From assembly GCA_963847815.1 (NCBI GenBank), contig CAWKBF010000003.1, positions 970,935-1,034,934 of the forward strand: a DNA stretch of 64,000 bases. Reading direction: 5' to 3'. This stretch comes from an uncultured Acidimicrobiia bacterium. Its GTDB lineage: Bacteria > Actinomycetota > Acidimicrobiia > IMCC26256 > JAENVU01. Numbering within the stretch: position 1 is the stretch's first letter; every line of letters begins with the position of its first letter. The notes under the pieces were generated by a model, which was not told the origin of the DNA, did no database searches, and saw only the letters and a list, made by a program, of their open reading frames with translations. This document shows positions 44,251 to 46,266 of this stretch, piece by piece. The translations under genes were made by a program, and so were the position numbers.

Positions 44251-45006
44251 TCAGGACGCGACGAACAGGTAGATCGACACCGCGATCCCGAAGCCGACCA
44301 CGCAGAAGCGCAGCACCCGCTCGTTGAGCTTCCGCGCGATCGCCGCACCGAGGTAGCCACCGAGCAGGGTGGTGGGTGCAGCAACGGCGACGTACGCCCA
44401 GTGCACCGGTCCGAAGAGGCCGAACACGATGACGCTGATCGACGCGTCGAAGAGCGAGATCACGGATTTCGTGGCGTTCAGGTGACGGAGCGTGTCGTGG
44501 ATGGTCAGTCCGAGCACGGCGAGCACGATGACGCCGAGCGCACCGCCGAAGTAGCCGCCGTAGATCGTGGCGAGGAAGACCCCGAAGAGCGCTCCGACTC
44601 CGACCCGTCCGTCGGGGTCCTTCGCTTCGCGGAGACGCCGCCGGACGACCGGCTGCAGTGCCGTGAGTGCAGTCGCCGCGAGCACGAGCCACGGCACGAT
44701 GACGTCGAAGGCGCTCGACGGCGTCACGAGGAGCAGCACGCAACCCGTGACGGAACCCGCGACCGTCGCGACGAGCAGGCGGGGGAGACGGCGACGACGT
44801 TCCTTGATCTCGCTCCGGAACCCGCCCACGCCGCCGACGTAGCCGGGCCACGTCGCAACCGAGTTCGTCACGTTCGCGTCGAGCGGCGCCAACCCGGTGA
44901 GCAGCAGCACCGGGAACAGGATGAGCGACCCACCTCCGGCGATGCTGTTGATCACGCCGCACGCGGCGCCGGCCGCGGCCACCGCCGCCACGTCGAGGAG
45001 AGTCAC
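44251..45006 (-). CDS. TauE/SafE (TSUP) family membrane transporter
   Basis: INSIAGGGSLI, ANVTN, YGGYFGGALG, NATK. Confidence 0.88.
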   Translation of the reverse strand: MTLLDVAAVAAAGAACGVINSIAGGGSLILFPVLLLTGLAPLDANVTNSVATWPGYVGGVGGFRSEIKERRRRLPRLLVATVAGSVTGCVLLLVTPSSAFDVIVPWLVLAATALTALQPVVRRRLREAKDPDGRVGVGALFGVFLATIYGGYFGGALGVIVLAVLGLTIHDTLRHLNATKSVISLFDASISVIVFGLFGPVHWAYVAVAAPTTLLGGYLGAAIARKLNERVLRFCVVGFGIAVSIYLFVAS

Positions 45007-45154
45007 GACGCGGCACGCCTCGGTGGGAACATCCGGCCATGGGACCACGCCACATCAACACTTTGCCAATGCAATGACGATGACGGACGGTATTGCTCGC
45101 CGATCCGCGTAGCGTGGTGCGGATCCCCATGCGCGTGACGAGAGGTAGGTAGCC

Positions 45155-45397
45155 ATGTCCGACTACGTCATCCCTGACCCGGAGCCCAAGGAGATCGACG
45201 AGAAGCTGTCGATCGAGCTTCGGCATCTCTCGCAGAATGCCGTGCTGAAGGGCGCTCCCTCCGGCGACGAGCAGTGCGACAACTGCCTGTACTACCTCGA
45301 GAACACCGCAGACATCTCGTACTGCTGGCATCCGAAGCTGCGCATCCTCGTCGGTTCGACGTGGTGGTGTCAGTGGTGGGAGGCGATCCCGGAGTAG
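45155..45397 (+). CDS. HiPIP-like 4Fe-4S protein without a signal peptide (80 aa)
   Basis: QC41DNC44LYY-x-C57-x-VGSTWWC72QWW, i.e. C-x2-C-x12-C-x14-C; RBS-like GAGGTAGG. Confidence 0.72.
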   Translation: MSDYVIPDPEPKEIDEKLSIELRHLSQNAVLKGAPSGDEQCDNCLYYLENTADISYCWHPKLRILVGSTWWCQWWEAIPE

Positions 45398-45418
45398 CGC
45401 GGCTCGTTCAGGCCCGGG

Positions 45419-46228
45419 TCACGATGTCGGACGTCGACGTTGGGCGCTCCGACCGTGCTCCTCGGCCCGGTCGAAGACGGCCATCAGCTGCTCGGGGTGG
45501 TTGCCGAGGGCGATGATGTCGTCGGCGCCGTCCGGAGGCATGAACACCTCGGTCGAACGGTCGTCGATGGCGGTCACGATCGTCTTGGCGACGAACGCGG
45601 GGCTCACGGGATCGGCCACGAACGCGAAGGCAGCCGAATCGTCGCGTGCCTCCTGCTCCAACATCGGCGTCTCGACGGCCGTCGGGTGGACGATCGTGAA
45701 GTGGATCGGGCTCTGGCGCTCCTCGATGGCCACCGCGTGGTGGAACGCACGAAGCGCGTGCTTCGAGGCGGCGTAGCTGGCGAGTCCAGGGAAGGGGAGG
45801 AGCGCGGTCATGCTGCAGACGGTCACGATGTGACCGTGACCCTGCTCGCGAAATCGCCGGAGTGCGGCGAGCGTGCCGGTGAGCGGACCCATGAGGTTGG
45901 TGGTGATCGTCCGTTGGTGGCGCTCGACCGAAACGTTGCGGGCGAAGCCCGTCTCGACGATGCCCGCGTTGTTGATGAGGACGTCGAACGAACCGAGCTT
46001 CGCGACGGTCTCGTCCAACGCGGCTTCCCAGTCGGTCTCCGAGGTGATGTCGAGCTGGATCGCCATCGCATTCGTTCCGAGGCCGGTGGCGAGCGCCGTG
46101 GCGGATTCAATGTCGATGTCGGCGATCACCACCCGGTCACCGCGTCCGGCGAGCAGCCGTGCGGTCGCGGCGCCGATCCCGCTGGCGGCGCCGGTGACGA
46201 GATAGGTCGCGGCTGGGCGGTCGGTCAT
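45419..46228 (-). CDS. SDR family oxidoreductase
   Basis: TGAASGIG, INNAG, YAASK. Confidence 0.92.
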   Translation of the reverse strand: MTDRPAATYLVTGAASGIGAATARLLAGRGDRVVIADIDIESATALATGLGTNAMAIQLDITSETDWEAALDETVAKLGSFDVLINNAGIVETGFARNVSVERHQRTITTNLMGPLTGTLAALRRFREQGHGHIVTVCSMTALLPFPGLASYAASKHALRAFHHAVAIEERQSPIHFTIVHPTAVETPMLEQEARDDSAAFAFVADPVSPAFVAKTIVTAIDDRSTEVFMPPDGADDIIALGNHPEQLMAVFDRAEEHGRSAQRRRPTS

Positions 46229-46266
46229 CGATCGGACCCTAGGTCCCGGCTGCATACGCTGAAGCC

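Follow-up and report, generated by a model that had tools for sequence, protein, structure and literature searches.

HiPIPs (high-potential iron-sulfur proteins) are described as periplasmic electron carriers exported by the twin-arginine translocation (Tat) pathway, and a HiPIP serves as a model Tat substrate (PMC13673990, available portions). Papers on iron oxidation likewise treat the HiPIPs Iro and PioC as periplasmic carriers, and the available portions of these papers contain nothing on signal-less HiPIPs (PMC10654088; PMC13741234). The HiPIP fold is also reported from the cytoplasm, in the [4Fe-4S]-binding beta and gamma subunits of benzylsuccinate synthase (BSS) (PMC12590467, available portions). 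Subunits of glycyl-radical enzymes such as these were the only cytoplasmic HiPIP-fold proteins found in a full-text search of the literature, which turned up nothing published on HiPIPs of Actinobacteria that lack a signal or are cytoplasmic. Here we describe a gene for an 80-residue protein in a 64,000-nucleotide stretch of the genome of an uncultured Acidimicrobiia bacterium (the whole stretch is referred to below as the window). The protein is homologous to HiPIPs and has a predicted HiPIP fold; the safest statement is that, within the HiPIP superfamily, it represents a divergent subfamily without an export signal. With moderate confidence, we propose that it is a cytoplasmic [4Fe-4S] redox protein of the HiPIP type, with a one-electron role and a partner encoded at an unlinked site.

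Sequence and predicted fold

The gene and the parts of the protein considered here are as follows.

45155..45397, + strand: coding sequence (CDS) of the 80-residue signal-less HiPIP-like protein, from the open reading frame (ORF) listing, with an ATG start and the stop codon included
45155..45217, + strand: codons of the N-terminal segment (residues 1-21; Y-V-I-P-x-P-E-P-K-E-I-D-E), which is acidic and rich in proline and for the most part not included in the alignment to solved HiPIP structures
45275..45286, + strand: codons of Cys41-x-x-Cys44, the predicted first and second cluster ligands, aligned with the C-x2-C of solved HiPIPs
45323..45331, + strand: codons of Cys57-Trp58-His59, the predicted third ligand and a conserved C-W-H motif, aligned with the C-T-H of the Halorhodospira halophila HiPIP
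45362..45379, + strand: codons of Trp70-Trp71-Cys72-Gln-Trp74-Trp75, the predicted fourth ligand in an aromatic shell, aligned with the G-W-C-x-x-W/Y of solved HiPIPs

A first-pass annotation of the window, made from the DNA letters, had described this ORF, its length, its cysteine pattern and the residues around the cysteines, and all of these are present in the sequence. The cysteines are residues 41, 44, 57 and 72 (C-x2-C-x12-C-x14-C; codons at 45275-45277, 45284-45286, 45323-45325 and 45368-45370, + strand), and they stand in the contexts P-x-G-x-x-Q-C-x-N-C-x-Y (Q-C-x-N-C-x-Y-Y), Y-C-W-H-P and W-W-C-Q-W-W. All four align with the ligand cysteines of the solved HiPIPs 1hpi, 1pih, 2hip and 8z82_a. 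Among 33 diverse family members C41, C57 and C72 are invariant and C44, H59 and W70 nearly so; distant members (27-47% identity) keep the four cysteines, His59, Val66 and Trp70. The protein is acidic (isoelectric point 4.49, net charge -8).

A Pfam scan of the window protein at E <= 10 returned a single family, HIPIP (PF01355). By itself the protein scores below the threshold of this hidden Markov model, but 21 of the 33 diverse members match it at E <= 1 (best, 3.5e-6), and one homolog cluster bears a precomputed PF01355 label. The profile of the 33 members finds the solved HiPIPs 1pih (E = 2.4e-5) and 2hip (E = 3.3e-5) (Halorhodospira halophila HiPIP I) in a match that spans profile positions 9-77 and chain residues 3-72, with all four cysteines and the histidine after the third cysteine aligned. 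The same profile matches two further HiPIPs, 8z82_a (E = 0.013) and 1hlq (E = 0.018), and the sole non-HiPIP row has E = 0.072; the window protein alone matches 1hpi weakly (E = 0.31). A profile search of the window's genome with PF01355 gave only a junk match with two internal TGA stops and missed the known gene.

An AlphaFold2 model made with a diverse alignment has a predicted local distance difference test score (pLDDT) of 92.2 and a predicted template modelling (TM) score of 0.69, with a mean pLDDT of 80 for residues 1-10; with a shallow alignment of 23 close homologs the prediction was too poor to use (pLDDT 48.5). In a Foldseek search of the PDB with the usable model, the first 16 matches are all HiPIPs (best E = 8.8e-3, TM scores 0.54/0.61; none at E <= 0.001). 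Alignment with VIA-align gives HiPIPs Z scores of 5.4-7.5, modest in absolute terms, with root-mean-square deviations (rmsd) of 1.9-2.7 A over 55-61 residues, and gives BSS beta a Z score of 4.7, with an rmsd of 2.9-3.0 A over 52-53 residues. A search independent of Foldseek, over 48,161 PDB representatives, found 12 chains at Z >= 2, and the 11 listed are all HiPIPs (including PioC) or HiPIP-like [4Fe-4S] subunits of glycyl-radical enzymes. The fold match covers the whole domain, is confined to one fold and agrees with the sequence profile. Both the profile check and the structure prediction that had been suggested for this gene point to a HiPIP relationship.

From the alignments and the model, it is most likely that the protein binds one [4Fe-4S] cluster in an aromatic shell: Cys41, Cys44, Cys57 and Cys72 would hold the cluster, and the side chains of Y46, Y47, Y56, W58, W70, W71, W74 and W75 would enclose it. 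Four cysteines in so small a protein might instead bind Zn or mononuclear Fe as a structural metal-binding module, and one or two of the 33 members do match zinc-ribbon or zinc-finger families weakly (E 0.025-0.18). However, the cysteine spacing, the aromatic surroundings, the profile match and the fold agree in each case with the [4Fe-4S] site of HiPIPs, and the structural matches include no zinc-ribbon fold, which makes such a module highly improbable.

Two substitutions set the window protein apart from classical HiPIPs. The usual G-W-C reads W-W-C at the fourth cysteine, as the first-pass annotation had it. The tyrosine conserved in HiPIPs (Tyr19 in Chromatium numbering) packs on the cluster and protects its oxidised form; in two HMMER alignments to solved HiPIPs this position is Leu22, which shows no variation in 23 close homologs. 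The proposed change from Tyr to Leu thus stands, but its place does not: Leu22 lies 19 residues before the first cysteine, and about 10 had been given. In the structural alignments the matched part starts at model residue 18-22, and therefore most of the conserved N-terminal segment is an addition to the classical HiPIP domain. This segment (residues 1-21) is invariant or nearly so among close homologs.

Start codon, promoter and export

Ahead of the first cysteine the protein has neither an RR-type motif nor a hydrophobic stretch (highest 15-residue Kyte-Doolittle mean, 0.13), in agreement with the first reading of the sequence. No hydrophobic 15-residue window occurs in any of the 33 diverse members, and the RR-type motif found in one of them is located inside a helix. 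The survey of homologs found neither a Tat nor a Sec signal in any of them. Where homolog gene calls are longer, their N-terminal extensions are unrelated and unalignable, and conservation begins at M-[SA]-D-Y. Two elements lie directly upstream of the window's gene.

45146..45148, + strand: in-frame TAG stop, 9 nucleotides upstream of the ATG, seen in the sequence
45140..45145, + strand: GAGAGG, a Shine-Dalgarno-like element, 9 nucleotides before the ATG, seen in the sequence

Because of the TAG, the frame cannot be extended upstream without a frameshift. The start is marked in a different way in most relatives. Across 81 loci with an ATG or GTG start, a TANNNT hexamer begins at -14..-12 in 66 and is found at just 3 other positions within -60..-6. 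The box, of the type G-n-T-A-n-n-T-T, ends 6-8 nucleotides before the start codon, with a G two bases ahead in 53 of the 66 and a T at the fifth position in 50, and these 66 loci lack a Shine-Dalgarno element. In actinobacterial promoters with a -10 box so near the start codon, the transcript begins at the start codon. Most relatives therefore appear, by this sequence pattern, to make leaderless mRNA, and the position of the box leaves no room for an upstream signal peptide in 66 of the 81 loci. A Tat signal hidden upstream by a frameshift, an objection raised in the first-pass annotation, is excluded by the unconserved extensions, the in-frame stop and the -10 box taken together.

A Shine-Dalgarno-like element at -18..-5 is found in 11 of the 81 loci, among them the window's copy, which has no leaderless-type -10 box. 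Its 5' flank (GACGAGAGG) resembles those of loci L010, L017 and L035. The window's gene would thus use a Shine-Dalgarno-like site where most of its relatives would be leaderless. A scan of 44950-45550 for consensus promoters and terminators found none, and the three sequencing runs found, all with small shares, include no RNA data. A promoter of the sigmaB/sigmaF type, which has a GGGTA consensus with a GTT-type -35, was considered for the 66 boxes and rejected: GGG precedes the TA in just 16, and the single G two bases upstream is ordinary for actinobacterial -10 boxes.

A signal-less protein could still act outside the membrane like classical HiPIPs if it were exported in folded form with a partner that bears a Tat signal. 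Tat co-translocation of signal-less subunits is an established mechanism, the window's genome encodes TatC, and the conserved N-terminal tail could serve docking. No signal-bearing partner adjoins the gene in any surveyed locus, however, and nothing else points to export; we regard this route as very unlikely. The protein most likely stays in the cytoplasm.

Outside the window, the same genome has a second TatC match (G000:C1:1198086-1198725), which consists of two abutting halves in different frames (profile positions 1-103 and 103-208) and may be a frameshifted tatC paralog.

Distribution and gene neighbourhood

A word-indexed search found 678 homologs of the 80-residue protein at E <= 0.001; the 120 listed share 73-88% identity, and "hypothetical protein" is the only name among them. 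The family is compact, since an exhaustive HMMER search of 1.84 billion representatives gave just 156 clusters at E <= 0.001. The ESM Atlas contains a near-identical cluster with the automatic name "HiPIP family profile domain", whose few taxon-labelled members are mostly Myxococcota. In 80 ungapped homologous CDSs (3160 pairs), mean differences at codon positions 1, 2 and 3 are 0.127, 0.093 and 0.341, a roughly threefold excess at the third position over the other two. The CDS is a real gene under purifying selection.

Within the sampled genomes the family occurs almost only in Acidimicrobiia. The gene is present in 39 of 301 sampled genomes of this class (a count that takes in the unpublished genome G275), in 36 of 237 high-quality genomes and in 25 of 135 genera. 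Each carrier has a single match, as does the window's genome with its one copy, except G296, which has two. Among 401 sampled genomes of the phylum (about 30 of them from Acidimicrobiia by family tallies), one match lies outside the class, in G653. The 80 public loci are titled Acidimicrobiia, Acidimicrobiales, Iamiaceae, Microthrixaceae and similar.

A few bins are implausibly labelled (L005, L022, L014 and L015, as Bifidobacteriaceae, Gammaproteobacteria or Nocardioides). Their copies are 85-88% identical to the window protein, and the labels seem to stem from mistaken binning or naming, not from gene transfer.

Three metagenome proteins of 147-171 residues (P0121, P0140 and P0164) are tandem two-domain forms with a complete four-cysteine HiPIP-like module in each half, and these alone look real among the longer proteins. 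They suggest that a dimer may be the working form of the single-domain protein. Other candidate fusions were rejected: P0174, P0184, P0165, P0258, P0133 and P0142 were read as frameshifted or read-through gene calls, and P0212 is an unrelated ankyrin-type repeat protein.

The window's gene is flanked by two genes on the opposite strand, which are given for context only.

44251..45048, - strand: TauE/SafE-type membrane protein, divergent neighbour (PF01925, E = 1.2e-37)
45419..46255, - strand: short-chain dehydrogenase, convergent neighbour (PF00106, E = 8.1e-48)

The PF01925 match bears out the first-pass description of a divergent TauE-type transporter; two enoyl-CoA hydratase genes lie beyond it. 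A survey of neighbours, which clustered ORFs within 6 kb at 81 loci (80 homologous loci and the window's own), found no conserved partner, and the TauE neighbour is not conserved either. The largest cluster (27 loci) was discarded as an antisense shadow ORF over the HiPIP-like gene itself, and the most widespread cluster of true neighbours is a generic short-chain dehydrogenase (18 loci, at scattered distances). A Pfam scan of the 136 nearest flanking ORFs likewise revealed no conserved partner gene, with no family in more than 5 of them: LigD primase-polymerase and SRPBCC/Polyketide_cyc2 are found in 5 each, STAS and short-chain dehydrogenase in 4 each, and every other family in at most 3.

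Two genomes of the same genus (G272 and G281) match the window only over the CDS (window 45152-45394, 85% DNA identity), and homologs of the window's neighbours (enoyl-CoA hydratase, TauE and PNPOx-like) were found there on other contigs than the HiPIP-like gene; the gene is absent from a third genome of the genus. This arrangement suggests a one-gene unit whose place in the genome changes, and it would be an autonomous unit with its own promoter.

The sole match outside the class (L087:6910-7206, in G653) is a divergent copy that follows genes for a class-III aminotransferase, an ectoine synthase and a PhyH-type (ectoine-hydroxylase-like) protein and precedes two CNNM/CBS transporter genes; no redox partner is seen nearby.

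Conservation across 80 species-level genomes reaches at least 90% at more than 50 of 78 positions, the N-terminal tail included. Such high conservation of the whole surface and the tail argues for one specific conserved partner, not a general shuttle. It is also compatible with a non-catalytic accessory or structural subunit, bound tightly to a larger cytoplasmic enzyme in the manner of BSS beta and gamma, in which the cluster would be structural or regulatory and would not relay electrons. The alignment of the model with BSS beta favors such a role, as does the precedent of the BSS-type subunits, which are cytoplasmic, signal-less and [4Fe-4S]-binding (PMC12590467, available portions), and so does a conserved tail that extends beyond the HiPIP core. 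However, BSS subunits are encoded with their catalytic subunit, and no gene for a large partner is conserved alongside the HiPIP-like gene; a search of the window's genome (86% complete, a figure that applies to all searches for absent genes in it) for a glycyl-radical enzyme partner (PFL-like, PF02901) found none. Classical HiPIPs also match better than BSS beta, by sequence and by structure. An accessory subunit is thus unlikely, and we continue to favor a soluble redox protein with an unlinked partner.

Possible partners and comparison with known systems

Several observations give leads to a function, all of them weak. In 6 of 83 loci, which belong to a single clade, a Fur-family gene lies divergent to the HiPIP-like gene and is followed by rubrerythrin and DUF3501 genes. 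In these loci the HiPIP-like gene has a perfect palindrome, TTTGACAA-N3-TTGTCAAA, over its -35 region, about -47..-29 from the start (L075:5954-5972, and in a similar place in L047, L073, L074, L076 and L081). This palindrome is a candidate for a shared operator of the Fur-family and HiPIP-like genes. The rubrerythrin of these loci has no cysteine and no rubredoxin domain, and it presumably needs an external electron donor for this reason. Two other loci (L035:2664-6243 and L010:616-4210) have a same-strand run of genes for TetR, a single-cluster ferredoxin, a P450, a nitronate-monooxygenase-like protein and, last, the HiPIP-like protein. SufB follows the HiPIP-like gene in both, with a convergent truncated globin in between in L010; a globin-like ORF in L035 has no Pfam match. 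The short locus L017 holds the P450 and nitronate-monooxygenase-like portion of this run, and P450 genes also flank the HiPIP-like gene in L013 and L077.

A comparison of genome lists found rubrerythrin in 36 of the 39 carrier genomes and in 65 of 262 non-carriers. The excess is driven by large families that have neither gene: co-occurrence is confounded by lineage, since most non-carriers come from such families, and 65 genomes have rubrerythrin only, so that most holders of rubrerythrin are without the HiPIP-like gene. In the window's genome the rubrerythrin gene is about 1.1 Mb away from the HiPIP-like gene, and the palindrome was not found there.

The Fur-family gene upstream of that rubrerythrin gene (G000:C3:2127983-2128394) matches as two pieces 4 nucleotides apart, which may reflect a frameshift or an assembly error.

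These associations raise the question of a cluster-based stress protein, a sensor of or sacrificial reductant for peroxide, nitric oxide or iron stress whose cluster state would report or buffer oxidants and would not supply a metabolic enzyme. The divergent Fur-family and rubrerythrin pair with its palindrome speaks for it, together with the distribution of rubrerythrin and the adjoining truncated globin and SufB (L010), SufB (L035), Usp (two ORFs) and STAS (four ORFs). Each association, however, is seen in one locus or a few related ones and could be synteny that was inherited; the rubrerythrin count is subject to the confounding noted above, and the window's own genome shows neither linkage to rubrerythrin nor the palindrome. 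Pfam scans also revealed no DNA-binding or signalling domain in the protein. We give a stress function a low probability. A more specific suggestion, that the protein is the dedicated one-electron donor of a cytoplasmic oxidant-detoxifying enzyme, with the cysteine-free rubrerythrin that lacks a rubredoxin domain as the candidate, is a long shot; if true, it would constitute a cytoplasmic high-potential electron path without a described counterpart. A hydrogenase partner was also considered and set aside, because PF00374, the family of the [NiFe] hydrogenase large subunit, gave no match in the 86% complete genome of the window.

The reading that we favor is a cytoplasmic HiPIP-type redox protein, and the first-pass proposal of a cytoplasmic HiPIP-fold family gains support from the profile, the fold, the lack of a signal and the lack of a fixed neighbour. 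In such a protein, the cluster would use the 2+/3+ couple of HiPIPs to give single electrons to, or take them from, a cytoplasmic partner whose gene lies at another place in the genome. The bound cluster, its redox couple, the cytoplasmic location and the carrier role are what we infer. Several points weigh against this reading. The window protein alone matches PF01355 with E = 0.068 and 13.9 bits, below the gathering cut-off of 22, and NCBIfam has no model for it. The replacement by Leu of the Tyr conserved in classical HiPIPs may make the 3+ state less stable. In the cytoplasm, a protein of positive potential would stay wholly in the reduced state if no strong oxidant or high-potential enzyme took electrons from it, and the surveyed loci yielded no partner. 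The extent of conservation is more in keeping with a subunit that is tightly bound, or with a specific docking partner, than with a promiscuous shuttle, and co-export is conceivable in a genome that encodes TatC.

A conserved family of HiPIPs without a signal, in a phylum of monoderms, poses two questions: what use a cluster tuned to the 2+/3+ couple has in a reducing cytoplasm, and which cytoplasmic enzyme needs such a partner. The protein is small, soluble and easy to express, so its metal, potential and partners are within reach of routine methods. An annotated family would take the place of several hundred "hypothetical proteins" from Acidimicrobiia that are abundant in soil, groundwater and wastewater.

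Among described proteins, the WhiB-like proteins offer a parallel in setting: they are small cytoplasmic four-cysteine Fe-S proteins of Actinobacteria, often highly conserved and encoded by stand-alone genes. Their cysteine pattern and fold differ from those of the window protein, and no Wbl match was found in the Pfam scan (E <= 10) or the fold searches. The small subunits of glycyl-radical X-succinate synthases and 4-hydroxyphenylacetate decarboxylase (BSS beta/gamma 4pkf and 9pzj, 2y8n_B and 9o8u_B) are closer. Like the window protein, they have a HiPIP-like fold and are signal-less and about 60-90 residues long with four cysteines, which in their case bind [4Fe-4S]; they are also cytoplasmic, as the window protein probably is. 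They differ in that they give a weaker structural match to the model (Z 2.4-4.7), that their family HPIP_like (PF18524) weakly matches just 1 of the 33 members (E = 0.025), and that they are encoded with a catalytic subunit; PF02901 is not found in the 136 nearest flanking ORFs, nor in the 86% complete genome.

The nearest described relatives are the HiPIPs themselves (PF01355), with 1pih, 2hip, Ectothiorhodospira vacuolata 1hpi and Rhodothermus marinus 3h31 the nearest of these. The window protein differs from them in the lack of a Tat signal in any family member, in a host that is a monoderm actinobacterium without a periplasm, in the changes of the conserved Tyr to Leu and of G-W-C to W-W-C, in about 20 additional, highly conserved N-terminal residues, in a gene that is not adjacent to photosynthetic or respiratory genes, and in its score under the Pfam cut-off. 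It resembles them in size, in the order and similar spacing of the cysteines, in its acidic character and in the aromatic residues before and after the fourth cysteine, and it shares with the H. halophila HiPIP the C-x-H-P motif that follows the third cysteine. The predicted fold is the same (Z 6.0-7.5 for the nearest), and the profile match to H. halophila HiPIP I is near full length (best E = 2.4e-5).

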